Shown here one piece after another: positions 22,758-63,577 of a DNA stretch of 64,000 nucleotides (position 1 is the first letter of the stretch; each line of letters starts with the position of its first letter). Made by a program: the position numbers and the translations under genes. Under the pieces are notes generated by a model. It saw nothing but the letters and a program-made list of their open reading frames with translations. It was not told the DNA's origin and made no database searches. The DNA comes from Candidatus Marinacidobacterales bacterium (lineage in GTDB: Bacteria > Acidobacteriota > Vicinamibacteria > Marinacidobacterales > DATDRI01). The stretch lies in NCBI GenBank assembly GCA_965219415.1, contig CBDCNP010000002.1, positions 2,560,001-2,624,000 of the forward strand. Reading direction: 5' to 3'.

Positions 22758-23567
22758 TCACATCAAGATTCTGTCGATCTCCTCTAAAGCCTTCTGAATA
22801 TCCTCGGCTTCATTATAGAGATGGGGCGAGAATCTTATGAAGTCCTTTCTGGCTGAGACCATCACTTTTGCTTCATTGAGTTGTCTAGCAATTTCAGATG
22901 AACTTTTTCCTGGGAAGCGAGCGGCAACTATGGATGACCGTTCTTCGTCATTCCTTTGGTGAGATAATTTCCGCGTTTCGCTCCTCTAACCCCTGAATAA
23001 GCAGAAAAGATAGATGCTTGTTGTGCTCGAAGATTCTTTCCACCCCTACTTTTAGAAGGCATTCAATGGAGCGTGCCAAGCCAAGAGGAGAGCCGTAGGC
23101 CATGGTGCTAAACTCAAATCGCTTGGCCGTATCTGGGTATTCCAACCGGTCTGCCTGAAAATCCCACATGTCTTTATGACTCCGCCAGCCGACCAAACCA
23201 GGTTCCAATTTATTCTGTAAATTGGGTGCTAGATACATGACTGCAACTCCGAATGGCCCGCAAAGCCACTTGTAGGCCGAGCTGACTAGCGCATCAACCT
23301 CCGAAGTCGTGACGTCTACCGGAACCGCACCCGCAGATTGGGTGGCGTCTATGACGAGCAAGGCACCATGAGCGTGAGCTTTATCAGCCATGAGTGCCAG
23401 ATCATAGAGCTGGCCGCCCCCATACTCAACATGAGAGAGGCAGACTATCGATGTTCTATTGTCAATCAACTGGATTACTTTTTCAGGGTTGACATATCCA
23501 TTTTCCCCTCTCGCCCATCGGACCTCAGAGTTCATGTGTCTGGATACGCGAATCCAGGGATAGATTG
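22758..23567 (-). pseudogene. Aminotransferase class V (cysteine desulfurase/kynureninase-like), 5' truncated by IS256 and frameshifted ~22950
   Basis: DATQSAG and SAYKWLCGP (PLP lysine). The C-terminus IRFSPHLYN is in a shifted frame. Confidence 0.8.
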
Positions 23568-24939
23568 GAGCTCTTGTCAATAGGTGTGTAAAAAAGTTCA
23601 GGCAGCAGCAACCTTCGACGACTCCGTTACCCTGTCTCCATCTTCAAATCGAACGCCCAGGTGAACCTCTCGCATCAGCTCCGGTGCGTTGAGCCGGCGA
23701 AAATTCTTCTCCGCAACCAGAAGCAGTTTGAAGATTGTCGCAGTGGCGGACTCGACTTTCTTGAACCTTTTGGCCGCATCCGTTCTCAATCTCAGTGCAG
23801 CGAACGGTGACTCCACGACGTTGCTCGTGCGAAGGTGTTGCCAGTGAGGCTTGGGAAAGGAATAGAAGCTGACCATCCGCTCCCAGTCCTCGTCGAGCAC
23901 GTGCGCGGCCCCCGGAAGACCCTTGCGCAAGCACCAATCCTGGAACTTGGCCTTCTTCGTCTCGCACTCCTGCAGGCTGGTGGGGTAGGGGATCGCCGTC
24001 AACAGCGGCTTGGCCTGCGCCTGGTCCCTTTTCGGAATCCGGTCCAGTACGTTGAGGATTCGGTGGTTCCAGCACCGCTGCTCCTCAGCTTCTGGAAATA
24101 CGTTTCGGGTCGCGGCCCAGATGTCGAGATGACCGTCACCGATCACCAAACGGGGACATCTCAGACCGCGCTTCTTCAGTCTCCGTAGCAGCGACGACCA
24201 TGACGCTTCGGATTCTCGATGCCCGGCCTCCAGCGTCAGGACGATTTTCGTCCCGTCGGACAGGCCACCAACCGCAACTAGCACCGCCGCCTTGTCCTTC
24301 TCAAGGCCGGCCTTCACGTACACGCCATCTACCCACAGGGACACGAGCTCGAGTTCGTCCAGTGGGCGAGCTAGCCACTGCTCGTACTCTCCCTGCCATT
24401 TCTGTTTCAGCCGCGACACCGTGCTGGAAGAAAGTGGAGCGTCCTCCCCTAGAAGCCCGCGGAGCGCCAGATCGAAATCTCCGTGAGCTAGTCCATGCAG
24501 GTACAGCTCCGGAATCAACTCGCTCACCGTTTCGCTCCGACGCTTGAACAGCGGAAGCACTCGACTTTCGAACCTCTCCTCCACGTCCCCTACTCTCGGC
24601 CGGCGAACCGTCACTGTGCCCACGCTCATCGTCAGCTTCCGAGGCTTACCGTATCCATTTCGATAGCCCGCCGTTGTGTCCACGGGCTTCCGTCTCTCCG
24701 ATTTCTCACGCCCGAGAAGCTCCGTGACTTCGGCTACCATCAGCTCCTGCACCCAATCCTGGATCTCGAGCCTCGCCCACTTCTCCAGCGACTCCCAAGC
24801 CACCCTTGACGAGCTCCGTCGTCTTGTGGTCTTTTCCTTCATGGCGGTGTCTCCTTCCGTTGGCCCCTTCACGCCGTGTTTCGTGACGCGGAAGGTTACT
24901 CCGCCTTTACTTTATTTCCACACCTTCTGAGGGTAGCTC
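23568..24939 (-). mobile_element. IS256-family element with intact transposase (23598-24872)
   Basis: WVDGVY, IGDG, QRCWNH and RTSNVVES motifs. IRs GAGCTCTTGTCAATAGGTGTGTAAAAAAGT / GAGCTACCCTCAGAAGGTGTGGAAATAAAGT. No target duplication seen. Confidence 0.92.
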
Positions 24940-30319: not shown

Positions 30320-30419
30320 AATCTTGTTTCCAGGAGCTAAGGGCCCGGTCGCAAACACAGACACCAAGCTGCTGATTTATAGGCTATTTCAAAAAGCCCG
30401 AGTTTTGGCACAGGACGGG

Positions 30420-36404: not shown

Positions 36405-37755
36405 GGCCAAGGGCCGTGGGCTTTACAATCGTCTTGGGCAGGCGGGTCGTCACCATGCAGATGACCTCCTAGTCGAGAGCGAATATCGAAGCGTGTTCCT
36501 GAAGCTGTTTCCACGCTACGCCTGTCGAGCCCGCCGAGGGGCTACCGTCGCCGGCGACAATCTACGCGGCACGGCAGTAGTAGTTGAGAATGCCCCCAAG
36601 TCGCTCTCGCGACACGATGGGGCTAGTGTCATTCGCGCTTGCCGGCAGAGGTGTGAGGAGCTCGTTGCCGAGACCTTGGTGGTTCCGTTCTGTGTGATAG
36701 TGCACTACGTATTCGGTTACCGCTGTGCGCAGGTGTCGCTCACTGAGAGGTACGAAGCGGTCGAGACACTCTCGACGTATGGAGAGAACGAATCTTTCCG
36801 CATATGCGTTCAGATTCGGACTATTAGCGGGAAGGCGAAGGGGCTTCACGCCTGAATCTCTCAACAGCCCACGTACCGCCTCGGTGAATAGCGGGTCCCG
36901 GTCGTGGATGAGGTATCGCTTGCCAAGGAGGAAACCATCCCACATGTCCGTGAGGTTTCTTGCCACCTGCTTCATCCACTCCCCGTTGGGGTCCGACGTT
37001 ATCCCACCGATGCACACGCAGCGAGTGGCGATATCGATGACAAACAGGACATGGTAGCGGACGAGCCCGAACGGGTTCACCACCTCGACGGGGAACAGGT
37101 CTGTCGCAGCGATGGCACCCCAATGAGCCTTGATGAAGGTGCTCCACGACATGCTCCTGCCCCGGAGCCGGCGCGATACCGTGCTCGGCGAGGAGCCTCT
37201 TGATGGTGTTGCGTCCGAGTTCATGTCCGAGGTTCTTGAGTGCGCCTCGCAGGCGCGTATATCCCCACGTCGGGTTCTCCCGCGCCACGCGCACAATGAG
37301 CTCACGGATGTCCTTCGCCGTCGGAGGTCGGCCTGGGCTCCGGTTCTTGCTGCCATCGTACTTGGCTGCGATGAGGTGGCGGTACCAGCGCACAAGCGTA
37401 GCGGGTGTGGCAACCGACGCAATCTGGGCCAGCGCCTCGCGGCCCAAAGCCTGGGCCTTGACCGCGAGCCTGCGCCGGTCGTCGTCCGAGAGACTGAGAC
37501 GCTTGCCCCGAAGCCCGGCTCGGAGCACACGGTTCTCCTCTTGCAGGTAGTCGATCACATCCTGCTGCTGGCGGTTGACCCAGCCAGCTAGAACGAGCAG
37601 TAGGAATTGCACGTGGTACGTCATCATGGAGCTGAAGATAACACCCTCGGGCCAGACGATTGTAAAGCCTACGGCCCTTGGCCCCGGCGCAAACACAGAC
37701 ACTAAGCTGCTGATTTATGGCCTATTTCAAAAGGGCCGAGTTTTGGCACAGGACG
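36405..37755 (-). mobile_element. Copy of the family-A rve element, transposase frameshifted ~37160, one TIR clipped by IS256
   Basis: Near-identical to 51390-52817, with a small deletion after GIAPAP. Confidence 0.88.
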
Positions 37756-37844
37756 GGATACCATCGAATCTGTATTAGCGGTGGAGCAAGGAGTTTCTTG
37801 AGCCGGGGCACATAGAATCTCCCTTTTGTGCGTCCGCGTGATAG

Positions 37845-38542: not shown

Positions 38543-38731
38543 CCATCTGCACCTGTGTCTTCTATTTATTCATCCGCGCGCCCCGAACTTGATCGGTCTC
38601 CGGTCTCCCGGGACCATGTCTGCATGATCTCGTCGTTTGTTCGCGCTCGGCCCTTGGCACGGCCGCAAACACAGACACTAAGTTGCTGATTTATGGGCTA
38701 TTTCAAAAGGGCCGAGTTTTGGCACAGGACG

Positions 38732-39180
38732 GGTTCACAACCTCGACGGTGAACAGGTCTGTCGCAGCGATGGCGCCCCAATGAGCCTTGATGAAGGTGC
38801 TCCACGACATGCTCTTGCCCCGCTCCGGGGCAGGCGCGATACCGTGCTCGGCGAGGATCCTCTTGATAGTGTTGCGTCCGAGTTCTCATGTCCTAGGTTC
38901 TTGAGTGCGCCTCGCAGGCGCGTATATCCCCACGTCGGGTTCTCCTGCGCCACGCGCACAATGAGCTCACGGATGTCCTTCGCCGTCGGAGGTCGGCCTG
39001 GGCTCCGGTTCTTGCTGCCATCGTACTTGGCTGCGATGAGGCAGCGGTACCAACGCAGAAGCGTAGCGGGTGTGGCAACGGACGCAATCTGGGCCAGCGC
39101 CTCGCGGCCCAAAGCCTGGGCCTTGACGGCGAGCCTGCGCCGCTCGTCGTCCGAGAGCCTGAGACGCTTGCCCCGAAGCC
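38732..39180 (-). pseudogene. Internal fragment of the family-A transposase bounded by two family-A ends
   Basis: [19 protein letters not shown]...[10 protein letters not shown]...; both boundaries are A termini. Confidence 0.85.
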
Positions 39181-39558
39181 TGTCCTGTGTCAAAACTCGG
39201 CCCTTTTGAAATAGATCGCAAATCAGCAGCTTAGACGCCCTTGGAATCCGCGCAGAATCCAGGGTATTTCGCGCCGTAGGGCTGGCTTCCGACCCTTGGG
39301 CTGCGGGTGGCGGGCGACAGGCCCACCGGGGGTGCGCACGGCTGGCTCAAATCGGCTGCGGGGCGAGCTGCAGGCAACGAACTGTGCACCCGGAAGGAAT
39401 ACGTATCCGACCGCGATGCCGGATTCAAGCAGCTCTTGGAAAGGTGCAAACTGCTGACCCGATGGGCGTTCGAGTATTTTGACTAGACGGCAATGCCGCG
39501 ACGTAGCTGCGCCACATCGTGAACGACTTAGGTTGTGCCACGGAGGCGAATGCGACCC

Positions 39559-42500
39559 TTAACCTGCACGCTCGAGGACTTTAGTCAGGTCAACCGCCCG
39601 TGCCCGTTGATCCTGTCCCGGCCCACTCTCATTTCCTACTTTGGTGTTTTCGTCCAGGTAGTCTTCGGGGCGGCATGTGAAGACCACGATCTGGATCTTC
39701 TTGGAACTCTCCTGGAGCTTCTGGCGGAACCATTTCATTCGAACGTCATCCGTCTGAGCAAGCTGGTCGTCCAAAAGCAACACGCTCTTGAGCTGCTCGG
39801 CGAGCGATAGTCTGAAGATCGTTGCGAGTTGCTCTCGAGTTCCGACGGAAAGCGTGTCGACCGGCCTTTGGTTGCCGGCCGCCTCCATGCCGGCGGTCTC
39901 CATATTCGGGCCTAGTTCAAGCTGACCGTAGCGTTCTCCAGTGAGCTCTTGGAACCTTTCGGTAATGGGAGCGACGATGCTCTCGCCTAAGTGGGTAGCT
40001 TGGTCTTGCTCGGCCTCATGCAACGTATCGAGAAGGAGTTTCCAAGCTCCGTACTCGGTGTCGAGTTCCGATTCTCTCTCGCGCAGTCGCTGGTGGCGCT
40101 CCCTTGCAGCTTCTAGGCGCTCCCTCGCGACGTCACCTCCTGTCTGGCTCAACGCGCCTCTCGCCTTGGCTAGCGTGCTCTCTACCTGTTTCAGCTCAGA
40201 TTGTTCTCTTCGGAGCTGATCTTCCGCGACTTGGCCGGCGTTGACGTCAATCGGTCCCGTATAGCCCATGGCGCGGACGTCGCTTTCGAGGGCCTCCAGC
40301 TCTTTTTCGAGCCTTGCACACGACAAACGCGCGCCGCGTTCGTCTTCCTGTTCCGCCGCATGACGCCTTTCCTGAAGGCGACCCTGACAGGCGCCGAGAG
40401 CCGTCTTCAACTCGACGATCTCCTGTTCCACGATTACTAGCTTTTCTTCCGCCTGTTCTTGGCGTCTTTGCGCCTGCTCGAGGCGCCCTTCGGCGTCACG
40501 CAGTTGTCCGGTCTGGCCTTCCGTGAGTGCTTGGATCTTCTCCCGAACCGCAAGCTCATCCGAGGAGATCTGAGATAGGTCCGCCCGGGCCTTCTGGAGC
40601 CTATTGCTCCAGTCGGCGCCGAACTGCTCGAGGGCGAGGTCTCTTCTCCGCGAGGCTTCATCGCACTCCTGGGCCTGGGCCTGAAGTTGAGTTTCTTCCC
40701 GCGCAATCTCGACCTCGAGCTGCGCCGCGGCGCGCTTCGCCTCTTCCATTTGCCCCCTGGTTGTGTCGATTAGCCCCCGAAGCTCCGCTCTAGAGGAGGA
40801 GCCTATCGAGGTGCCCTGCTTCTCGAGAACGTCGCGATCAAACGGAGCAAGTGCTTCTTCGAGAGCGGCGTGTTGAGTGCGCAGCTGCTGAGCTTTGGTG
40901 TCGCCGGCGCTCCCCGCTGCAGTGACCTGGGCTTCAAGCGCAACGATTTCTTGCTCGAGCCGCTGAAGGGCGAGCTGCCGCTGGTGATGCTGGCGTACTG
41001 CTTGTCGTAACTCCTCCAGAGTAGCAGCCTTGGCAGCAGCGAAAACCGGCTTGGCTCGAGCATTCCACTCCTGTCTCAATGCACTGAATCGTTCCCGGGA
41101 ATCGGCCTTTCCTCCTGTGACAGCGAACGATCCAAGTCCGGGGATCTCGAGCCGAATCTCGCGTTCCGCTTGGAAATCTTTCTCTTGACTGAAGCTCACG
41201 CTCTGAGGAGCCTCGCCGTCGCGCGATAGCCGTGCCTCAAAGGAGCGTTCGGGCGTGACAACCAGCGAGAGGCCAACACCAGCGCTTGCTTCAGCAGTTC
41301 TCAGCTGGTCTTGCAGCTCCTCGAGCTGAGAGAGAGTGTCGTCATCGGGGAGTTGGCGCTCTGCGTCTATCGCCGTCAGTGCGTCTGCTTCCTCACGCTT
41401 TTCTTGGACCTGCTGCCTTGCGACGTTGGCCCGCTCAGCTGACGATACGACTTGTTGTAGTTGCGTCCCAACCTCTTTGAGCTCGAGCCAGTCGCCAATC
41501 GCGTTCAACAGCTGAAGATTCGAAGCAGCCTCCTCCGCTGTTTTCTTCGATGCGTCCAGTTCTTTGCCGCGTCCCGCAAGAGTTTGTCTCTCGAGCGTCA
41601 GCCGCTGCTCGCGATCCGTAGCTGCGTCTACAAGGTCCTGGATGCCAGCCAGCGCCGTTTCTTTATCGGAGAGCTCCCGCTTTCGCCGATCGAGAGTTAG
41701 TTGAGTCTTCTCTAGTTCGGCCTGGTCGAGTTTGCGCTTTTGCTCACTGGAAGCGTTCTTCACTTCCGCAAGAGCACGTTGAGCCTTTTGGTAGGACGAG
41801 CGTGCCGCGCTGACCTTCGCTGTGGCTTCTTTCCGCTCCTCGTCGAGGTCTCCAAGGTCTTTCTGGATACTTGCCTCTTCCTTTACGGTCTCGGAAACCC
41901 GTCGGCTCAGGTCTTCGATTCGCTCAAGCTCCCGTCGGGCTCCTTCCGCCTCCGTCTTTTTGTCAGCGGCTCCCTTCAGTTTCGCTAGCAGAGTCTTGGT
42001 ATCCGTGAACCGAGCGTCTTGCCGGAGACGCTCGTCCATCAACTCGCTGATACGCTCCCGTGCAGTGTCGCTTGTGGCAAGCGATGCCTCGAGCGTCGCC
42101 TCTGCTTCAGCGGCCTTGCGCACCTCGTCTGCGATCTCGGTGAAGGGTGACGCGCGGCCCCGTTTCTTTCTGCCGGTGTTCGTAAAGGCTTCATCAACCT
42201 TTCCCTGGGTGGCGTTCAAGACGTTCGTGAAAAGGGGATCCTCGGCAATCGCTTGGAGCGCCTCGGTAAGGCGATCTCTGCCGGATTTGTCGTCATCCTC
42301 GCTCAGGTCGGTCCTGAAAACGGACGTAACGTCGTCCTGGTGGGCGAGTAGCACCGTCGTGAGGAAGCTCTCGTGGATACCACGACGACCACCACGCCCG
42401 CCAGGCTCCGGGATTCCCCATTTGAGCAGCTTTCTGACCTCAGCATCGACCTTGCGGCCCTTCGCTTCCGTCGTAAACGACACACCGTCCTTCGAGAACT

Positions 42501-42795
42501 CGAAGATCGAGCTTCCCTTGCTACTTGCTCCGAACGTCTTCCGGAGACGCCAGATGCGCTGTGGCTCGGTTTGGAAGACCAGTTCTACCGAGGGAGCTTT
42601 GTCCGTGCGCCACTGAACATACGGCTCGTGTCCACTGGAAGTGTGCTGCATCAACAGGACGGCACGGATGGCCTCTGCCAAATTGGACTTGCCGAGATCG
42701 TTTGGACCATAGAGAACGTTCAGTCCCGGGCCGAACTCGATATTCGCGGATCGGATACAACCAAAATCCTCGACGTCGAGCCGAATCAAACGCAA
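39559..42795 (-). CDS. Rad50/SbcC/SMC-like AAA ATPase (YhaN/AAA_27-like) with long coiled coils
   Basis: Walker A GPNDLGKS, signature LSVGTREQ, Walker B LLLDD, terminal VFTCR. No CxxC hook seen. TTG start 2 nt after the corrected upstream stop. Confidence 0.88.
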   Translation of the reverse strand: MRLIRLDVEDFGCIRSANIEFGPGLNVLYGPNDLGKSNLAEAIRAVLLMQHTSSGHEPYVQWRTDKAPSVELVFQTEPQRIWRLRKTFGASSKGSSIFEFSKDGVSFTTEAKGRKVDAEVRKLLKWGIPEPGGRGGRRGIHESFLTTVLLAHQDDVTSVFRTDLSEDDDKSGRDRLTEALQAIAEDPLFTNVLNATQGKVDEAFTNTGRKKRGRASPFTEIADEVRKAAEAEATLEASLATSDTARERISELMDERLRQDARFTDTKTLLAKLKGAADKKTEAEGARRELERIEDLSRRVSETVKEEASIQKDLGDLDEERKEATAKVSAARSSYQKAQRALAEVKNASSEQKRKLDQAELEKTQLTLDRRKRELSDKETALAGIQDLVDAATDREQRLTLERQTLAGRGKELDASKKTAEEAASNLQLLNAIGDWLELKEVGTQLQQVVSSAERANVARQQVQEKREEADALTAIDAERQLPDDDTLSQLEELQDQLRTAEASAGVGLSLVVTPERSFEARLSRDGEAPQSVSFSQEKDFQAEREIRLEIPGLGSFAVTGGKADSRERFSALRQEWNARAKPVFAAAKAATLEELRQAVRQHHQRQLALQRLEQEIVALEAQVTAAGSAGDTKAQQLRTQHAALEEALAPFDRDVLEKQGTSIGSSSRAELRGLIDTTRGQMEEAKRAAAQLEVEIAREETQLQAQAQECDEASRRRDLALEQFGADWSNRLQKARADLSQISSDELAVREKIQALTEGQTGQLRDAEGRLEQAQRRQEQAEEKLVIVEQEIVELKTALGACQGRLQERRHAAEQEDERGARLSCARLEKELEALESDVRAMGYTGPIDVNAGQVAEDQLRREQSELKQVESTLAKARGALSQTGGDVARERLEAARERHQRLRERESELDTEYGAWKLLLDTLHEAEQDQATHLGESIVAPITERFQELTGERYGQLELGPNMETAGMEAAGNQRPVDTLSVGTREQLATIFRLSLAEQLKSVLLLDDQLAQTDDVRMKWFRQKLQESSKKIQIVVFTCRPEDYLDENTKVGNESGPGQDQRARAVDLTKVLERAG

Positions 42796-42797
42796 TG

Positions 42798-43942
42798 CTA
42801 ACTCCGCTTCGCAAGTTGATAGAGATGGTAGAGTGCGCGTTGCGCGAGCTCCGGATCAGTTTTTCCGCTTCCTGAAGGCGATCCACGACCGATGCGAGAA
42901 TGTTCGGGAGCTCTGCACGGAGCTCGTCGGTTCGGGTGGTATCCAACGTCAGATCATCGTGGTCCACTTGCAGAACACCAACTCGGCCATGAGCCGCCGT
43001 CGTTCCTTTCAACTCACGGAGTACTTCTAGGACCTTGTCGTATTCGGCAAGGGAAACGCTCATGTTCAGGTGAAGGCGAATAACGCTTTGATTTAGGTCT
43101 TCATCTCGCAGACGTAGCAGACTCTCGACGTCAGTCACACTCTCCTCACGCCAGGTCCACTTGCCGACGGTCTCTCGACGAATGTGCGGCCGCGACCTCC
43201 GACGGGGAAAGAACACGATAGCTACGTAGCCGGCGTCTTCCTCTCTGAACTTGGTTTGCTCAGGCGCGCTGGGATAAACGGTGGGTACACGGGCGCCGGG
43301 AGGCACTTCCCGGAAGCTGTGCGTGTCTCCAATCGCGAGGTAGTCGAAACCTTGCCGCTCTGCGGCGTCCTCCGCGATCGGAAAGTTCGTTTGACACCCT
43401 TTGATGTCAAAGGTTTGTCCGTGCACCATGCCCACACGAATACGATTGTCGCCGGCGGCCCGGGAAGGTAGCACCAATGCCAAGTCCTCTTCGCCCGCCT
43501 GAGATCGACACGGCCTTGCACAGAGAACCGCCTCCGAGTTGAACTCGTATTCGAAGTCATCTCGATCGACGACGTGCACCCACGAGGGGAGACCCTGCCG
43601 AAACGGATGCTCTGGCGCATACACCGAGCTGCTCGTCAGGGGGTCGTGATTTCCGGGGAGTAGAAAGACCGGTCGTGAAGCCCAGTGACGCTTTTCGAAG
43701 CAGCGGAGAAGTCCGCTCCACCACTGCTTCTCAGGGGAGGGGTCGTCAAAGAGATCGCCAGCGCACAGGACTCCGTCCACGGAATAACGCTCCGCCACGC
43801 CGAGTAACCGGTCCACAGCTTCGAGTCGCGCGCGCGTGAGTTTGAGCTCGTCGGCATCGTCGAAGGACGAGAAACGCATCCCTAGATGCCAATCGGCCGT
43901 ATGCAACAGCTTTAGCGCCACATCTTCCTCCGGAACACTCAT
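42798..43942 (-). CDS. Mre11/SbcD-like metallophosphoesterase nuclease (one-base shift in A run ~42860)
   Basis: DWHLG, AGDLFD, PGNHD, VHG and GDTH motifs. Adding one A gives EAEKTDPELAQRALYHLYQLAKRS* ending at 42798. ATG overlaps the SNF2 stop (ATGA). Confidence 0.88.
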
Positions 43943-46905
43943 TCGATCACGAACTCCACGGCCAGAATACGGGTCCTTTCTGGCGAGGCGTATCGACGAT
44001 CGAACGCGTGCTGCTTCCACCGCTGATAATCCGTATCGTCGCGGGCTTCGAGCTTCGCAATACGTGTTTCGAGTTCTTCGAGCTTTTTCTCGAGCTCTGC
44101 GAGCTTCTTGGTGGGCCCGTCGCGGGCGTCGGGACCTAGGGCGGCATCACGTTTCGCCTCCGACTCTCGCATGCGAGCCTTCACATGCTCTTGCTCTCTG
44201 CGAAGGACCAGCACCTGGTCATCCATGAATCGCTCGAGTTGCTCCATGGTGCGTTCGAAGTGCTGCTGTTCTGCGGCTTCGACGCGAGCCTGGTCAAGAA
44301 ATATGCTTTCCTCAATCGCGTCTTCGATATCCTCGTCCGTCACCGACAAAGGCGGCGTAAACGCATTGATACTCTCCGCCTCCAGTGACAGCACGGGACT
44401 GATCAGCTCCGGCGCGACGGCGACGTCGGTGTCTTCAAGGGTCAGACTCGGCACCAAATGCTCCACGGCCTCAACACCGTCATATTTCACCTTCGTGACG
44501 GCCAAGTACCCGCGTTTGTGGCGGTATTCGTCCAGCGGATCGCCTAACTTGTCGTTCAGCTTGAAACGCACTCGGAGGCGACCCTCTGTGGCGGCTCTGG
44601 ACTCCTCCAAAGCAGCACGAACCAATGGATGGCCCAGATGCACCGGGTCAGTGTCCTCCAGGTCCTTAGCATGTCCAATGGCCACCTGCGCGCCCTCGCG
44701 CAGTTCTTCCGGTAGAGCCGGCGATGCGGAAAGCTCGAGGAAGATCCTACCGTCCTTCGTCGTCCGCTCGAAGGGCGCGTTGATCGCGGTCAAGTAGCCG
44801 GTCACTACCTCATCAATATCCCGATCCAATTGTGCAAGACTGCTCGGTAACTCTTCCTGGATCTGTCGGAAGACAGCTCTAACCGTCTTGTCGATCCGTG
44901 TCTCGATCAGGCCTCGTGTTCGATCGATCTCCTGCTCGAAGTCGCGCCTTTTGGCCTCCATGGTTTCGCGCAACCCGCGAAGCTCCTCCTCGATCTCCTC
45001 CACCGTTCTCGCGCGTTCGTAGATACGGCGAAGTCGAGACTCGAAATCCGCACCAAGCGCCGTCGTAAGCGTTTCCGGCGTTGATGTCGACGCTTCGTGC
45101 AGTACGACGTCAGATGCGTCGAGCACCGTGCCGAAGAGGTCCAGCTTGTCGCTGAGAATCTCAAAAAGAAGACGTTCGGCTTCGTTGTCTTTGGCGACGA
45201 AGTTAATGACCGTGACGTCGTGTGTCTGACCGTATCGGTGGCACCGTCCGATTCGTTGCTCGATCCGTTGCGGATTCCACGGAAGGTCGTAGTTGATCAG
45301 AGTGTCACAGAACTGAAGGTTCAGTCCTTTTGCGCCGGCCTCGGTTGAGATGAAAATCCGGGACCGTGTTTGAAACTCGTGGACCAGCGCGAGGCGGGCA
45401 GCAACACTTCGGCTCGGGCGACTGTACTTTGGTATATGCTGACCAACTTCCTCGTCCCAGCATTCCAAAGCTTCACTGGCTCTCGGCGACGCATTATCTC
45501 CGCGGAATAACGTGATATCTCGAGGAGCGAAACCGCTCTTAATAAGAATGTCCTTGAGGTGGTCCTGTGTTGTGAGTGACTCCGTAAAGATGACGATCTT
45601 GCCGCTACCTTTGCCTTTTCTCTCCTGGATGAGGCGGACAGCCTCGAGGAGCCGTTCGGCCTTGCCGTCCCGCGGAAGGCGCTCGACGCGTTGAACGAAG
45701 CGCTGAACACGTTCGAGCTCGTCTTGGATCTTCTCTGGGGTCAGCGCAGCCGGTGCCGTCTCCTCGTCCTCGGCTAGTGGGGGTAGCTCGTCTTCGAGAT
45801 CCAACGCGAAATCACGGACGCTTTCGCTGAGACGATGCGGAGTGACGCCAGCGAGCATTCTCTCCAGTCGTTCCGCAACCTTGCGCAGACTCGCGGCCAG
45901 GGCCGCAAGCGAGGAAGCCATGAGGCGGTGGAAACTGATAAGGAGAAGTTGCCTCTGATTGCCACTAAAGGCACAGATGTTGGGCTCAAGGAGATATCGA
46001 GTCACATCGTCGTAGACCTGGCGTTCCTCCGGACTCATTCGGTACTCGAGCAAAAGTGCTCGGCGGTCAACAAAGGGTTTGTCTAAGAACTCCTGGGCCT
46101 GGCGACGAAGCGTGCGCTGGCAAATGCGGCTGATGCGTCGCCGCAGCTCATGGGCTTGGTCGACCACGAGCGACCGATCGTCACCGTCGCAGAACACCTC
46201 GCGGAAGGTTGCGAGGTTTCCAAGCAGAGTACCCGTTGGCTCGATCCATTGCGTTAGGCCCCAGAGCTCCACAAGGGAGTTCTGGATGGGTGTTGCTGTG
46301 AGCAGCAACTTGGGTACGTCGGTGAACACCTGACGCACGCGATGCGCCATCTGCGCGTCCTTGGAGTCTTCTTTGTAGAAGCCGTAGCGATCAAACCGCT
46401 TGTGGATGCCCGCAAAAATCTCGTGCGCCTCGTCGATGACACATAGGTCGAAACGCTCGACGGACCGCAAGAGACTCGAGCCCTTTTCACTCCCTGCGAA
46501 ATCGCGAGAGGTAAGAAACACGCCGGGGCCGATGAAAGCGTCCGGGCTCAGCGAGCCCTCCTGGGTCTCGATCCCAAAGAGAGTGTAGAGCTCGTTCTGC
46601 CATTGGCCCAGAAGGGCCTTCGGCAAGATCAGGAGGACCCGTTGCCAACCCTCCGCGAGCAGCTGAGCAATGACCAAACCCGCTTCAATCGTTTTGCCGA
46701 GGCCAACTTCATCTGCAAGAATGCAGCCGCCTTCTGGAATGCGCTCCAATGCGAAGATGACTGCGTTGATTTGATGAGGGTTCGGGTCGATACGGCCACG
46801 GCGCTGGGACGCCGCGTACCGACGATGTTCGCTCGCCCGGCGAAGGCGCACGAGCTCTTCAGCCTGAATGCGGCGATGGATCGGATGCGGTGTCTCTTGA
46901 GACAA
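43939..46905 (-). CDS. SNF2-family helicase/translocase with C-terminal coiled coil
   Basis: ADEVGLGKT, IDEAH, TATPIQN, GLNLQ and YDLPWNPQRIEQRIGRCHRYGQ motifs. Confidence 0.93.
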   Translation of the reverse strand: MSQETPHPIHRRIQAEELVRLRRASEHRRYAASQRRGRIDPNPHQINAVIFALERIPEGGCILADEVGLGKTIEAGLVIAQLLAEGWQRVLLILPKALLGQWQNELYTLFGIETQEGSLSPDAFIGPGVFLTSRDFAGSEKGSSLLRSVERFDLCVIDEAHEIFAGIHKRFDRYGFYKEDSKDAQMAHRVRQVFTDVPKLLLTATPIQNSLVELWGLTQWIEPTGTLLGNLATFREVFCDGDDRSLVVDQAHELRRRISRICQRTLRRQAQEFLDKPFVDRRALLLEYRMSPEERQVYDDVTRYLLEPNICAFSGNQRQLLLISFHRLMASSLAALAASLRKVAERLERMLAGVTPHRLSESVRDFALDLEDELPPLAEDEETAPAALTPEKIQDELERVQRFVQRVERLPRDGKAERLLEAVRLIQERKGKGSGKIVIFTESLTTQDHLKDILIKSGFAPRDITLFRGDNASPRASEALECWDEEVGQHIPKYSRPSRSVAARLALVHEFQTRSRIFISTEAGAKGLNLQFCDTLINYDLPWNPQRIEQRIGRCHRYGQTHDVTVINFVAKDNEAERLLFEILSDKLDLFGTVLDASDVVLHEASTSTPETLTTALGADFESRLRRIYERARTVEEIEEELRGLRETMEAKRRDFEQEIDRTRGLIETRIDKTVRAVFRQIQEELPSSLAQLDRDIDEVVTGYLTAINAPFERTTKDGRIFLELSASPALPEELREGAQVAIGHAKDLEDTDPVHLGHPLVRAALEESRAATEGRLRVRFKLNDKLGDPLDEYRHKRGYLAVTKVKYDGVEAVEHLVPSLTLEDTDVAVAPELISPVLSLEAESINAFTPPLSVTDEDIEDAIEESIFLDQARVEAAEQQHFERTMEQLERFMDDQVLVLRREQEHVKARMRESEAKRDAALGPDARDGPTKKLAELEKKLEELETRIAKLEARDDTDYQRWKQHAFDRRYASPERTRILAVEFVIE

Positions 46906-46945
46906 GACTCTCTTCTAAACCTGTCGAATTAGACGGCGTCAAAAA

Positions 46946-46954
46946 GTCTAGCAT
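46946..46954 (-). promoter_or_regulatory. Possible extended -10 promoter for the SNF2 operon
   Basis: TGCTAGACT (TGn + TAGACT) on the minus strand ~40 nt upstream of the start codon. Confidence 0.35.
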
Positions 46955-46977
46955 GGCTCTCGGAAAGTCGTCTATTT

Positions 46978-47305
46978 CCACAAAGCTGCCTCATAACTAG
47001 CGGCTACTCATTCTCAGACGAGCATCTGAATAGAATCCTTGTGAGCGCGCTTCAGAACCCGACCTTGCAGCTCGTCGTTTACGTTCCCGAAGCGTGCTGC
47101 GACGGTCAGGGTATCGATCTCAGAAACTGCAGCGACTGGGTCCAGCGCGTGGTGGGGCTTGAGTCCCCGCAAGTTACCATTGTCGGTGGCGGTCCAAACG
47201 CCTATTTTAGCGCGTTGGTGGACCACTTGCCGGATCCCGCAATCTACGACGAACCAGCAGCGCGAATCCGGGAGATGATCAAACAGTATCGAGAACGGTC
47301 CACCC
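46978..47305 (+). pseudogene. C-terminal fragment of a SIR2-like (SIR2_2) NADase protein
   Basis: Frame upstream of ORF 47041 reads PQSCLITSGYSFSDEHLNRILVSALQNPTLQLVVY, matching the GYSFxDxHxN motif of defence-type SIR2 proteins. Cut by an A end. Confidence 0.72.
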
Positions 47306-48088
47306 CGTCCTGTGCCAAAACTCGGCCCTTTTGAAATAGACCACAAATCAGCAGCTTAGACGCCCTTGGAATCCGCGCAGAATCGAGGGTATTTCGCGCC
47401 GCAGGGCTGGCTTCCGACCCCTGGGCTGCGGGTGGCGAGCGACAGGCCCACCGGGGGTGCGCACGGCCGGCTCAAATCGGCTGCGGGGCAAGCTACGGGC
47501 AGATGAGAGCGCGAACAAACGACGAAATCATGCAGCCATGGTGCCGGCAGACCGGAGATTAATCAAGTTCGGTGCGCGCGGATGAAAAAATAGAAGGCAC
47601 ACCCAGGCTTTGGGCCGCGAGGCGCTGGCCCAGATTGCGGTGCTTCCGCCATCAAGTGTTGGTGAAATGACGCTAAGACTTTACGGTGCATTAAGTTACA
47701 GCCAAAATAGCGCTCGTGACCTTCGCTGCGCGCTAAATGGAGCGTAAGCGCCTCTTTTGCAAAGGGATGCGTACACATCACCAACAGTAAACAGCGCAAG
47801 CACCAGAGGGCCGAGTTTTGGCACAGGACGGGGTTCAGGGTCGTGTAGCGTCCCGCACTCAGCAATCAAAGCGGCCGCGTGCGGTTTTCGGCGCTCGACT
47901 CAAAGAAAGATTCCTGCATCGGTTGTTTTTGAGCTATACTCAGCATACGTTTAGTCGCATTCCGATCTGCGCCTGACCCGTCGCGGTTATCCCTTCCGGT
48001 TATCCTCGAACGAAATCAACATCAAGTTTTTGCCTAGATCGGCCGGTGCCAGGCACTGGATAGGCTGATTCAGGAGCATTCAATATCT

Positions 48089-51389: not shown

Positions 51390-52817
51390 CGTCCTGTGCC
51401 AAAACTCGGCCCTTTTGAAATAGGCCATAAACCAGCAGCTTAGTGTCTGTGTTTGCGACCGGGCCGAGGGCCGTGGGCTTTACAATCATCTTGGGCGGGC
51501 GGGTCGTCACCATGCAGATGACCACCTAGTCGAGAGCGAATATCCAAGCGTGTTCCTGAAGCTGTTTCCACGCTACGCCGGTCGAGCCCGCCGAGTGGCT
51601 ACCGTCGCCGGCGACAATCTACGCGGCACGGCAGTAGTAGTTGAGAATACCCCCAAGTCGCTCTCGCGACACGATGGGGCCAGCGTCATTCGCGCTTGCC
51701 GGCAGAGGTGTGATGAGCTCGTTGCCGAGACCTTGGTGGTTCCGTTCTGTGTGATAGTGCACTACGTATTCGGTTACCGCTGTGCGCAGGTGTCGCTCAC
51801 TGAGAGGTACGAAGCGGTCGAGACACTCTCGACGTATGGAGAGAACGAATCTTTCCGCATATGCGTTCAGATTCGGACTATTAGCGGGAAGGCGAAGGGG
51901 CTTCACGCCTGAATCTCTCAACAGCCCACGTACCGCCTCGGTGAATAGTGGGTCCCGGTCGTGGATGAGGTATCGCTTGCCAAGGAGGAAACCATCCCAC
52001 AGGTCAGTGAGGTTTCTTGCCACCTGCTTCATCCACTCCCCGTTGGGGTCCGACGTTATCCCACCGATGCACACGCAGCGAGTGGCGATATCGATGACAA
52101 ACAGGACATGGTAGCGGACGAGCCCGAACGGGTTCACCACCTCGACGGGGAACAGGTCTGTCGCAGCAATCGCGCCCCAATGAGCCTTGAGGAAGGTGCT
52201 CCACGACATGCTCCTGCCCCGCTCCGGCGCAGGAGCGATACCGTGCTCGGCGAGGAGCCTCTTGATGGTGTTGCGTCCGAGTTCATGTCCGAGGTTCTTG
52301 AGTGCGCCTCGCAGGCGCGTATATCCCCACGTCGGGTTCTCCTGCGCCACGCGCACAATGAGCTCACGGATGTCCTTCGCCGTCGGAGGTCGGCCTGGGC
52401 TCCGGTTCTTGCTGCCATCGTACTTGACTGCTATGAGGCAGCGGTACCAACGCAGAAGCGTAGCGGGTGTGGCAACGGACGCAATCTGGGCCAGCGCCTC
52501 GCGGCTCAAAGCCTGGGCCTTGACCGCGAGCCTGCGCCGGTCGTCGTCCGAGAGCCTGAGACGCTTGCCCCGAAGCCCGGCTCGGAGCACACGGTTCTCC
52601 TCTTGCTGGTAGTCGATCACATCCTGCTGCTGGCGGTTGACCCAGCCAGCTAGAACGAGCAGTAGGAATTGCACGTGGTACGTCATCATGGATCTGAAGA
52701 TAACACCCTCGGGCTAGACGATTGTAAAGCGCACGGCCCTTGGTCCGGTCGCAAACACAGACACTAAGCTGCTGATTTATGGCCTATTTCAAAAGGGCCG
52801 AGTTTTGGCACAGGACG
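51390..52817 (-). mobile_element. Intact rve (IS481-like/unclassified) insertion sequence, ~1428 bp, ~100-bp TIRs, transposase 51619-52689
   Basis: 356-aa ORF with HTH region ([14 protein letters not shown]), DDE ([17 protein letters not shown]) and RLGGILNYY tail, between two inverted family A repeats. No target duplication. Confidence 0.9.
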
Positions 52818-52819
52818 GG

Positions 52820-53984: not shown

Positions 53985-54793
53985 CCTTCCTCAAGGCTCA
54001 TTGGGGCGCCATCGCTGCGACAGACCTGTTCACCGTCGAGGTTGTGAACCCGTTCGGGCTCGTCCGCTACCATGTCCTGTTTGTCATCGATATCGCCACT
54101 CGCTGCGTGTGCATCGGTGGGATGACCTCGGACCCAAACGGGGAGTGGATGAAGCAGGTGGCAAGAAACCTCACGGACATGTGGGATGGTTTCCTCCTTG
54201 GCAAACGGTACCTCATCCACGACCGGGACCCGCTGTTCACTGAGGCAGTACGTGGGCTGTTGAGAGATTCAGGCGTGAAGCCCCTCCGCCTTCCCGCCAA
54301 TAGTCCGAATCTGAACGCCTACGCGGAAAGATTCGTTCTCTCCATACGTCGAGAGTGTCTCGACCGCTTCGTACCTCTCAATGAGCGACACCTGCGGACA
54401 GCGATAACCGAATACGTAGTGCACTATCACACAGAACGGAACCACCAAGGTCTCGGCAACGAGCTCATCACACCTCTGCCGGCAAGTGCGAATGACGCTG
54501 GCCCCATCGTGTCGCGAGAGCGACTTGGGGGCATTCTCAACTACTACTACCGTGCCGCGTAGATTGTCGCCGGCGACGGTAGCCCCTCGGTGGGCTCGGT
54601 CGGCGTAGCGTGGAAACAGCTCTTCAGGCACACGCTTCGATATTCGCTCTCGACTAGGTGGTCATCTGCATGGTGACGACCCGCCTGCCCAAGACGATTG
54701 TAAAGCTCACGGCCCTTGGCCCGGTCGCAAACACAGACACTAAGTTGCTGATTTATGGCCTATTTCAAAAGGGCCGAGTTTTGGCACAGGACG
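53985..54793 (+). mobile_element. 3' half of a family-A rve element
   Basis: [19 protein letters not shown]...YYYRAA plus 3' region and TIR. Confidence 0.88.
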
Positions 54794-54859
54794 GGGTCGT
54801 GCGAATAGCAGGGCAAGTTCGCCAATCTCATACAGCTCGAGTTTATGGAAGAGACAAGT

Positions 54860-59806: not shown

Positions 59807-61084
59807 ATGAGCCTGTCGAACTACGAAGTCACCGCGATTCTAAGTCTTAGGGACGACCTCGCGCGCGCCATAGGTGCGAATCAAGGTCAGATCACTGCGG
59901 CCCTGAAGGCTGCGGATCAGATGCGTGACATCGTCAACTCGCCGGCATCCCGCCAGATGCAGGAAATGTACGGGCGAGACCTGCAGTACCTTCGCGAACT
60001 ACGCGATGCCAGCGAGCAGATCAAGTCGCAGTTCGGGATCGCACACGTGAAGGCTGTTGCCGACGCGTTCATCGGCCTAAAGGTGTTCGATTCGGAGCAG
60101 TTCAGTGGAGGCATCTCGGCCCGGATTACGGAACAGTTCAAGTTGCTCAACTCGACGGTCGACCACTTGGCCGGTCTGAAGGCGTTGATGCCGCCCGACC
60201 ATCTGAGCGCCACGATCGCGAACAGCCTGCTCGTGAACGACGCCGCGCTCGACGCGCTCCGGCGCGCCGCCAATCTCTTCAAGTCGTGCGAGATGCCGGA
60301 CTACGCTAAAGAACTGGGGCAGCTTACGGCGATGTCGCGCGAGAGCGAGAAGCTGCTTCAGACTCTTAGTGCCCAGCACGGCTTCGCCGATCTACTGGGC
60401 GTTCATGACGTCACACGATCGCTGGTCAAATACGAGACCGGTCGGCTGAATCGCGCCTATGCAGGGTTCGGTGCGAGTATCGCGAGCCGACCGGAAAGGC
60501 TCTCGACCGGGCCGGATTTCCTCCTAGCTGCGCCAGCCGACGCCGTCTTTTCGCAGTCGCGGTTCGTGCGCGTTGTGACCACGCACGACGACATTGAGGA
60601 AGAGCGCGCGCTCGACGAGATCTGGGGCGGCGTTAGGGACCGCACCCTCGGGTACATCGACGCTGTACTGCCCGAGCTCAGCCCCGAGCTTATGAAGGCA
60701 TGGCGGGGCGTCTGGGACGCGGCGCATCGTCGCGGGCCGGATTGGGCGCGCCAAGCGGGAGCATCGCTTCGGTTCATCCTCGTCGAGGTTCTCGACACCG
60801 TGGCTCCCGTCGACGCCCTCACGGACATTCCACGGCAGTACGTTCGCGACGGAAGGCTGGGAAGACCGGCGCAGGTCTACTGGCTTTGCGTGCCACTTCA
60901 GAACCGGACCTACCGCCGGGTAGCGCGCGCAGATCTTGAGTCCGCCATCTCCATAGTCGACGCGATGTCGGAAGCAATTCACCGCCACGATTACGTCGAG
61001 ATCGAAGACGCATTCGACACGATGGTTGTCCGTACCGCGATCGCGCTCTGTAACTTGCTGAAGCTCTGGAAGGCGCGGAACTAG
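59807..61084 (+). CDS. Hypothetical protein with C-terminal domain resembling predicted pPIWI-associating nuclease (pP_pnuc_1-like)
   Basis: L.ELSPEL.KAWRG.WDA....PDWARQ...SLR.IL..VL...AP pattern and a late H-containing helix. TATAAT ~6 nt upstream of the ATG suggests a near-leaderless transcript. Confidence 0.55.
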   Translation: MSLSNYEVTAILSLRDDLARAIGANQGQITAALKAADQMRDIVNSPASRQMQEMYGRDLQYLRELRDASEQIKSQFGIAHVKAVADAFIGLKVFDSEQFSGGISARITEQFKLLNSTVDHLAGLKALMPPDHLSATIANSLLVNDAALDALRRAANLFKSCEMPDYAKELGQLTAMSRESEKLLQTLSAQHGFADLLGVHDVTRSLVKYETGRLNRAYAGFGASIASRPERLSTGPDFLLAAPADAVFSQSRFVRVVTTHDDIEEERALDEIWGGVRDRTLGYIDAVLPELSPELMKAWRGVWDAAHRRGPDWARQAGASLRFILVEVLDTVAPVDALTDIPRQYVRDGRLGRPAQVYWLCVPLQNRTYRRVARADLESAISIVDAMSEAIHRHDYVEIEDAFDTMVVRTAIALCNLLKLWKARN

Positions 61085-63284: not shown

Positions 63285-63577
63285 GTCGCCGGCGACGGTA
63301 GCCCCTTGGTGGGCCCGCTCGGCGTAGCGTGAAAACAGCTTCAGGAACACGCTTCGATATTCACTCTCGACTAGGTGGTCATCTGCATGGTGACGACCCG
63401 CCCGCCCAAGACGATTGTAAAGCCCACGGCCCTTGGCCCGGTCGCAAACACAGACACTAAGTTGCTGATTTATGGCCTATTTCAAAAGGGCCGAGTTTTG
63501 GCACAGGACGGGGTAACGGAGTCGTCGAAGGTTGCTGCTTTCTGAACTTTTTTTACACGCCTATTGACAAGAGCTCG
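63285..63577 (+). mobile_element. 3' non-coding region and TIR of a family-A element abutting the terminal ~65 bp of the IS256 seen at 23568
   Basis: Sequence matches 54565-54793 and the reverse complement of 23568-23632. Confidence 0.82.

Follow-up and report, generated by a model that had tools for sequence, protein, structure and literature searches.

A conserved cassette of a SNF2 ATPase, an SbcD-like nuclease, and an SMC-like ATPase in an acidobacterial genome, a candidate system against invading DNA

The three-gene cassette and its described relatives

Each of the described systems closest to the locus treated here shares a part of its makeup. DISARM class 1 places the gene for a SNF2 ATPase, DrmD, at the head of an operon that also encodes a DNA-cutting module; SbcCD and Mre11-Rad50 set a metallophosphoesterase before a coiled-coil ABC ATPase; and Lamassu (through LmuB) and Wadjet (through JetC) couple a coiled-coil ABC ATPase to a nuclease. 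In a 64-kb stretch of the Candidatus Marinacidobacterales contig CBDCNP010000002.1 (here called the window), open reading frame (ORF) analysis placed three minus-strand genes at positions 39559 to 46905 that combine these elements. They encode a DrmD/RapA-like SNF2-family ATPase (43939 to 46905; 988 amino acids [aa]; assigned with Pfam, PADLOC, NCBIfam, and an AlphaFold2 [AF2] model searched with Foldseek), an SbcD/Mre11-like metallophosphoesterase (42798 to 43942; 381 aa if the frame is kept; Pfam Metallophos, E = 9e-13), and an SMC/Rad50-like ABC ATPase (39559 to 42795; 1078 aa; Pfam SMC_N and AAA_15). The SNF2 gene starts with TTG at 46905 and stops with TGA at 43939 to 43941. The nuclease ATG at 43942 overlaps this stop (ATGA), and the ATPase gene starts with TTG at 42795, two bases past the nuclease TAG (42798 to 42800), and ends at 39559. 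An earlier reading made from the letters of this DNA without database searches (the sequence-only reading) had described the three genes as tightly coupled by an ATGA overlap and a 2-nt gap and as retaining all catalytic motifs; the re-derived coordinates were the same, and ortholog alignments placed the motifs in all three genes. A promoter scan found no sigma-70-like site between 39000 and 48200, and terminator-like matches in the same interval were fewer than the shuffled expectation. Base composition showed no step at the cassette, and no tRNA genes were found in the window.

We consider it an even chance, judging from sequence comparisons, that the trio is an unnamed cassette of three genes that stands alone, lacks a methyltransferase, and acts against invading DNA such as phages or plasmids. 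The cassette is probably a defence module because it is strictly conserved, has spread horizontally, and often lies beside known anti-phage systems. What is likely new is the combination of the three genes; the parts are known.

Gene order provides the first line of evidence. The full SNF2-nuclease-ATPase trio was found at seven genome-contig loci (L003, L004, L006 to L009, and L012; L005 is cut by a contig end) in metagenome-assembled genomes (MAGs) of Acidobacteriota and Pseudomonadota. In all seven other phylum genomes with a close SNF2 ortholog (54 to 56% identity, >1000 bits), the nuclease gene and the beginning of the ATPase gene lie directly downstream; these two sets overlap, L006 and L019 being the same place in one genome. 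Among metagenome loci with a nuclease at least 46% identical (n = 40), SNF2 lay upstream at all 36 whose contig left 200 nt or more of room, and the ATPase lay downstream in 31 of 31. Beside more distant nucleases, SNF2 was found at 0 of 40 metagenome loci, and in 11 phylum genomes with a SNF2 protein ∼33 to 40% identical (one of them, G150, unpublished), neither partner was present within the 1.5-kb flanks. The sequence-only reading had made its proposal depend on the SNF2 gene being linked to the nuclease/ATPase pair in other genomes, and the genes were indeed linked in every close ortholog locus with room.

Some database proteins span the gene junctions. P0391 fuses SNF2 with the nuclease (1371 aa), and P0392 to P0395 fuse the nuclease with the ATPase (705 to 1510 aa), each in a single-member cluster. 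These may be real fusions or read-through from one-base errors at the junctions. We did not count them as evidence of interaction, since a one-base error at the 4-nt overlap would mimic a fusion.

Comparison of the three proteins with named families

The SNF2 protein contains the Pfam domains SNF2-rel_dom and Helicase_C, with a helicase core at approximately residues 24 to 600 and a conserved C-terminal domain at approximately residues 690 to 988. The motifs GLGKT, DEAH, TATP, and QRIGRxHRxGQ occur without variation in 36 sequences, and these orthologs average 68% column identity at full length (57 to 86% identical over the full length). DrmD is the nearest family, matching the core and part of the C-terminal domain, and was also the best PADLOC model (PDLC02619; 443 bits). 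Against NCBIfam, the protein scored 447.4 bits on NF038318 (DISARM_DrmD_b; cut-off, 950) and 212 bits on NF038317 (cut-off, 610). Given 447 bits against a cut-off of 950, we regard it as DrmD-like and not as a DrmD equivalog. In contrast to DISARM, it is paired with a nuclease of the Mre11 type and an SMC-like ATPase. No DrmA, DrmB, DrmC, or methyltransferase was found by Pfam among the 42 window ORFs, in agreement with the sequence-only reading as to the methyltransferase, nor in the flanks of 31 ortholog loci, and the three DUF1998/MZB matches of the genome lie at least 150 kb from the cassette. Membership in DISARM class 1 was therefore rejected on both the DrmD score and the lack of adjacent DISARM partners. 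Assignment to Zorya type I (ZorD) or BREX (BrxHII) was likewise rejected: scores on other PADLOC models fell under that of DrmD (ZorD, ≤93 bits; BrxHI, 199 bits), and no such neighbors lie in the window. The only other SNF2 match in the genome is outside the window (G000:C3:4922043-4925050), ∼2 kb from a 1753-aa DUF1998/MZB protein, and may belong to a DISARM/Dpd-like system elsewhere in the chromosome.

Among solved structures, the best relative of the SNF2 protein is RapA, both by sequence profile (E. coli RapA, E = 3e-33) and in Foldseek searches with the AF2 model (pLDDT, 73.6), where E. coli RapA aligned over ∼1070 columns and other SNF2 proteins over ∼590 columns. The best Foldseek structure is an N-terminally truncated RapA. 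VIA-align gave Z scores of ∼21 to 22 to SNF2 cores over residues 24 to 591, with the C-terminal part barely probed, and re-alignment by VIA placed generic SNF2 cores ahead of RapA. Residues 640 to 988 returned a RapA_C-like Atlas match (0.96), which we treat as a lead only. The score on the RapA equivalog model NF003426 was 126.5 bits, well under the cut-off of 576, and RapA membership was not assigned.

More distant relatives of this SNF2 protein have other partners. Eleven viral-contig loci, picked from the best 80, carry a SNF2 relative ∼29 to 35% identical that scores 600 to 720 bits on the same DrmD model, and in all 11 two type III enzymes, a methyltransferase and a restriction enzyme, come next on the same strand. 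According to one report, a DrmD-like SNF2 protein, ietH, is recruited to ietAS, and protection requires its Walker A motif and DEAH box (PMC13069673). Given the relatives linked to type III restriction-modification (R-M) and ietH, the cassette SNF2 protein is one of several related SNF2 motors whose partner nuclease modules differ.

Across 32 sequences of the nuclease, motifs DxH, GD, GNHD, H174, and GDTH do not vary. The protein scored 55 bits on the SbcD family TIGR00619 (cut-off, 77.65), with the match limited to the N-terminal 89 to 100 residues; profile matches in the PDB (T. maritima and E. coli SbcD/Mre11) similarly cover only about the first 100 residues. No PADLOC family was matched, and 2215 relatives were found at E ≤ 1e-20. 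Unlike SbcD of SbcCD, this nuclease falls under the family cut-off, is additional to a canonical SbcD (178 bits, over the cut-off, ∼310 kb away in the host genome), and is always joined to SNF2.

The ATPase has a split head (residues 1 to 205 and 959 to 1078) and long coiled coils, and its motifs comprise Walker A GPNDLGKS, Q153, the signature LSVGTREQ, Walker B LDD, and D1016; Walker A, the Q-loop, and the signature are conserved. At Walker B, D1009 and D1010 are invariant, giving DD and not DE, and the His-switch position reads QIVVFTC (T1040 invariant; C1041 in ≥90%). No CxxC zinc hook was found in the 1078 aa and no conserved Cys pair in 40 aligned relatives. In the AF2 model (pLDDT, 82.5), a conserved beta domain of six strands occupies residues 509 to 560, which in the sequence separate the helical arms, at the place expected for a hook or hinge. 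By zinc hook, Walker B DE, and His-switch, the ATPase thus differs from that of SbcCD/Mre11-Rad50, and on these three features it was not placed in this family. Top Foldseek matches were generic for SMC/Rad50 proteins (Smc5/6, condensin, MukB, JetC, and Rad50), and the PDB profile match was to the P. furiosus Rad50 N terminus (E = 1.5e-10). PADLOC gave weak LmuB, AriA, and GajA matches only, the best being LmuB (43.5 bits; E = 6e-12). Unlike Lamassu and Wadjet, the locus contains no relatives of LmuA/LmuC or JetA/B/D, has an Mre11-type nuclease, and has a SNF2 partner that belongs to this cassette alone; Lamassu membership was rejected because of the low LmuB score and the lack of LmuA or LmuC matches.

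Counted at E ≤ 1e-30 and with one protein per 50%-identity cluster, the ATPase family has 474 representatives. Ten SNF2-less relatives were inspected (one from a Tsukamurella plasmid record, one from a Bradyrhizobium plasmid, and eight from metagenome loci), and all 10 carry LSxGxxEQ, hhhDDAL..D, and QIIVLTC, with a nuclease directly upstream. The sequence-only reading had correctly seen that the ATPase lacks CxxC and has FTC at the His-switch position, but these traits do not mark out this particular protein. Since all 10 SNF2-less relatives share them, the missing hook, DD, and the FTC position are family-wide and not specific to the cassette. Its statement that SbcD-like nucleases paired with coiled-coil ATPases are widespread agrees with the SNF2-less relatives found in plasmid records and metagenome loci. 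These pairs presumably correspond to the YhaO/YhaN or Rv1277/Rv1278 type; at the level of motifs, the cassette has the features of the YhaN/Rv1278-like family (head motifs and an adjacent SbcD-like gene). Although SNF2-less pairs have the same ATPase hallmarks, their nucleases are 26 to 34% identical to that of the cassette, whereas the pairs of the trio form a distinct group (nucleases at least 46% identical), to which the cassette SNF2 was confined among the loci compared. In the Tsukamurella plasmid record (L034, 2570 to 10773), a DUF3670 and SNF2 protein (959 aa), a 261-aa protein, and a PIN toxin were also observed; this DUF3670-type SNF2 gene lies ∼1.6 kb upstream of the SNF2-less SbcD/ATPase pair, whose ATPase is of the same family, suggesting a second, independent SNF2 association.

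The trio has no name among the models of PADLOC 2.0.0 or NCBIfam 20.0, and no paper describing a SNF2, SbcD, and SMC-like trio was found in a literature search that did not extend to the 2020 ABC-ATPase classification. A match to a named system would have overturned the sequence-only reading, and none emerged from these sources.

From these likenesses, we infer how the three proteins might cooperate. The SbcD-like nuclease and the SMC/Rad50-like ATPase would form an Mre11-Rad50-type complex. A conserved C-terminal helix of the nuclease would, as happens in Mre11-Rad50, dock where the coiled coil of the ATPase begins at its base, and the central beta domain of the ATPase would replace the zinc hook as the dimerization point. 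Because of its DD Walker B and the Cys at the His-switch position, the ATPase is probably slow at ATP hydrolysis and could serve as a clamp on DNA or a sensor of ends that are free, hairpin, or protein-capped. The RapA/DrmD-like SNF2 protein, a putative double-strand DNA translocase, would strip proteins or feed DNA to the nuclease, licensing it to cut. Self would be distinguished from non-self by DNA ends or structure and not by methylation. The full proposal, that of a widespread unnamed anti-phage/anti-plasmid system with a divergent Mre11-Rad50-type effector licensed on invading DNA by a RapA/DrmD-like SNF2 translocase, falls a little short of an even chance in our estimation. If it is true, no earlier case would be known of a complex of the SbcCD type given over to immunity, and DrmD-like SNF2 motors would be interchangeable front ends for type III R-M-like operons, DISARM, ietAS, and the present pair. 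A defence role would also mean that the effector is related to the universal double-strand-break repair machine, opening a route to ask how an Mre11-Rad50-type complex separates foreign from own DNA without methylation. The family is common in MAGs of soil and sediment Acidobacteriota, Pseudomonadota, and Myxococcota, groups whose defence repertoires are poorly known.

The same protein-level likenesses could instead point to a specialized DNA-repair or end-processing module, in which the pair treats protein-blocked, hairpin, or broken ends while SNF2 clears away roadblocks such as RNA polymerase. In fold and motifs, the pair matches SbcCD/Mre11-Rad50, and RapA, the best solved relative of the SNF2 protein, is an RNA-polymerase recycling factor. 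Related pairs without SNF2 in Actinomycetota and Pseudomonadota replicons, together with the DUF3670-type SNF2 gene near the Tsukamurella pair, also favor this explanation. However, the SNF2 score under the RapA cut-off and the structural match to a truncated RapA speak against it, and with the distribution and neighborhoods described below, we consider a repair function unlikely. Remodeller-assisted resection is known in eukaryotes, and a repair module of this kind would be its bacterial example.

Spread of the cassette and its neighbors

The cassette was present in 7 of 400 other phylum genomes, none of them listed from the class of the window itself. In a quick maximum-likelihood tree of SNF2 proteins (31 rows), the 27 trio rows formed one clade (SH-aLRT, 100), long-branched and far from four relatives linked to type III R-M, and three Gammaproteobacteria rows nested within an Acidobacteriota clade (SH-aLRT, 100). 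Given this patchy occurrence in the phylum, the cross-phylum nesting, and the separate canonical SbcD in the host, the cassette is, as far as gene distribution tells, accessory and horizontally spread and not a core gene set. The sequence-only reading had allowed that vertically inherited core genes would speak against it, and this was not what we found. Rarity in the phylum, the canonical SbcD, and the nesting across phyla also argue against the repair module. In one further case, two MAGs with labels of different classes, Thermoanaerobaculia and Vicinamibacteraceae (L006 and L007), carry near-identical trio SNF2 proteins in the same flanks (an FG-GAP/ASPIC protein upstream and GlnRS downstream), which suggests that binning or labelling went wrong or that a larger segment was transferred recently.

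To describe the company of the cassette, we used 31 ortholog loci with flanks and the 158 ORFs within 6 kb, all searched with Pfam; PADLOC was run on 125 of the 158 (102 of 102 at metagenome loci and 23 of 56 at genome-contig loci). PADLOC defence neighbors were found at 7 of the 31 loci, a raw count without a background rate. These include Avs2 (L123), ZorB/ZorC/ZorD (L135), and GajA/GajB (L142), and at four loci (L126, L133, L140, and L143) a Hhe/PDC-S37-like helicase-nuclease directly upstream on the same strand. Pfam added GmrSD (L144), MazF (L153), and an integrase, upstream of the cassette, and a Schlafen/AlbA_2 protein (L008). At L143, which also has PDC-S02, genes for the relaxase TrwC and the coupling protein TrwB are found ∼2.7 kb downstream of the cassette. 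The sequence-only reading had asked for enrichment in defence islands; company of this kind exists at 7 of 31 loci and, as a truncated SIR2 gene, in the window (see below), but the association is not universal. The recurrence of Avs2, Zorya, Gabija, Hhe-like, and conjugation genes is a further argument against a repair module, whereas the many loci set amid ordinary genes speak for one.

The protein upstream of the trio at the four Hhe-like loci is a giant one (L126:7-5172, L133:1496-6943, L140:1851-7016, and L143:2473-7011) that combines DUF4011, an Upf1-like helicase, and an MTES_1575 nuclease; at L143, a weak ZorB-like gene precedes it. It may be an independent neighbor or part of a larger composite system.

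Several observations weigh against reading the cassette as a defence system. No PADLOC-recognized defence neighbor was found at 24 of the 31 loci, and several loci lie amid ordinary genes (tRNA synthetases, dehydrogenases, transporters, and glycosidases). No close orthologs were found in 72,556 plasmid and 50,697 phage records, and the best 80 viral-contig loci held no close SNF2 ortholog and neither the nuclease nor the ATPase. Relatives of the nuclease and ATPase without SNF2 are widespread. The linkage counts are not all independent, because the genome-contig and phylum sets overlap, and the SNF2 tree comes from a quick search only. Contigs from an RNA library (X18, a metatranscriptome) overlie parts of all three genes (22 of 30 bins), a point in favor of the defence reading, but they may be contaminating DNA carried over, and their depth is 1 to 15. 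The anti-phage/anti-plasmid role put forward by the sequence-only reading is thus supported in part: linkage, patchy spread, and the absence of a name speak for it, while two points, traits special to the ATPase and an intact block, did not hold.

State and surroundings of the copy in the window

The second of these points concerns the nuclease gene of this genome. Three-frame translation and comparison of contig alleles located a frame break at a run of five A residues on the minus strand (42860 to 42864), 21 codons before the end of the gene; the −1 frame continues to the TAG at 42798 to 42800, and its shifted tail, DPELAQRALYHLYQLAKRS, agrees with the C termini of orthologs. A database protein, P0121, is intact at 381 aa and differs from the window nuclease product by one residue. 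We compared contigs of four public runs over 39300 to 47400. In run X1, a 4244-nt contig is identical to the window, the nuclease break included. X1 may be the source sample of the window assembly, and the two may share a sequencing error. In X4 and X5, from two other studies, the alleles are ∼99.7% identical (17 differences in 5540 nt for X4 and similarly few for X5), and in both a single extra base preserves the frame, so that intact alleles are in circulation. The extra base lies behind 42860 in X4 and behind 42859 in X5, which also has T>C at 42861. The sequence-only reading had attributed the break to a homopolymer shift; correcting the frame does restore the 2-nt gap, but a plain homopolymer miscount does not account for X4, which reads AAG ACT at the site (derived by hand). 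This genome therefore carries either a very recent one-base deletion or a sequencing error in common with X1.

Sister strains add a second break. In X1, a sister strain has a one-base deletion in SNF2 at 45108, outside any homopolymer, and locus L002 loses the SNF2 frame in the same place, at residue 599/600. Given the nuclease break and this SNF2 break, the statement that the block survives intact has to be qualified. At another place in a sister genome (L010), a degraded SNF2 fragment was found, 77 to 85% identical, in several frames and with no partner genes. Frame-broken alleles in two close strains also suggest dispensable genes, a further point against a repair module.

With its nuclease frame broken, the copy in the window may be inactive. 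That it is a decaying remnant without current function is a sizeable possibility, though one we hold to be less probable than its opposite, and it concerns the state of this copy and not the identity of the cassette. The break replaces the conserved C-terminal helix of the nuclease and recurs in the otherwise identical X1 contig; the SNF2 deletion in the sister strain is not in a homopolymer; L010 retains a SNF2 fragment only; and insertion sequence (IS) copies and truncated genes fill the region. In contrast, X1 may be the source sample, frame-kept alleles exist in two other studies and as P0121, the SNF2 and ATPase genes are open, and the shifted nuclease tail is perfectly conserved. Since the other genes are open and the tail is conserved, the change in the nuclease, if real, is very recent.

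The surroundings of the cassette are rich in mobile DNA. Many transposase genes and truncated genes occur in the region, and the cassette is bracketed by direct repeats of 198 nt (family D11), 94% identical and spaced 8125 apart, at 39179 to 39376 (left) and 47304 to 47501 (right; word depth, 18,000 to 45,000). The family is high copy and resembles IS ends or miniature inverted-repeat transposable elements (MITEs), and families D3 and D8 are related to it. Contig word depth was 1460 to 2995 over the bin of the left repeat versus ∼9 inside the cassette; over the bracketing repeats, depth was 100 to 5000 times that within. The upstream boundary of the cassette lies between 46906 and 47033, where two sister genomes (L001 and L002) lose similarity 93 to 128 nt upstream of the SNF2 start (at 46998 and 47033; blastn), and a contig joint from 46998 to 47306, whose short sides measure 22 nt, was seen in X1 and X5. 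Some joints pass over the cassette altogether (39364-39491 to 47302-47306); they were not counted as evidence of excision, because their sides of 21 to 28 nt fall within the high-copy repeat.

Such a setting could indicate that the cassette is cargo of mobile elements, with an anti-competitor or maintenance function that destroys rival plasmids or processes the ends of the element itself. The IS-derived repeats in an IS-rich region, the sister genomes that differ just outside the cassette, the TrwC/TrwB genes near the L143 cassette, and the integrase upstream in L008 are all in line with this idea. We nevertheless consider it quite improbable: the plasmid and phage collections held nuclease relatives only 26 to 32% identical and no close ortholog, the best 80 viral-contig loci likewise held none, and most loci are without conjugation or integration genes within 6 kb. 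It also overlaps the defence reading, from which it is hard to tell apart by sequence alone.

Beginning 79 nt upstream of the SNF2 start, the opposite strand carries what is left of a defence-type SIR2 gene, its C-terminal quarter (46984 to 47334, plus strand). This remnant, already noticed in the sequence-only reading, is real (PADLOC SIR2 PDLC02186; E = 2.4e-35; model positions 302 to 407 of 412), although Pfam SIR2_2 gave only E = 0.09; an Atlas lead (0.90) was also returned. The 5′ three quarters of the gene are missing, and the SNF2 gene sits where they would be. No match to the fragment was found in 300 other phylum genomes.

Elsewhere in the window, between 28000 and 64000, several families of 78- to 300-nt repeats occur in both orientations (for example, at 30342-30419, 37680-37757, 38656-38733, 52742-52819, 54718-54795, and 63435-63512). 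They resemble ends of IS elements or MITE-like forms derived from the IS copies at 36.5 to 37.7, 51.6 to 52.7, and 54.0 to 54.6 kb, and metagenome contig depth over two of them was 1,000 to 45,000. A 425-aa ORF at 59807 to 61084 (plus strand) had a weak match to a predicted pPIWI-associating nuclease domain (PF18165; E = 5.9e-6; 26.4 bits; cut-off, 26.3) and none in PADLOC. Finally, at 22948 to 23580 and 23598 to 24872 (both minus strand), a 210-aa fragment of a class-V aminotransferase/cysteine desulfurase, SspA/DndA-like by PADLOC (E ∼ 1e-17), is cut short beside a Mutator-family transposase.

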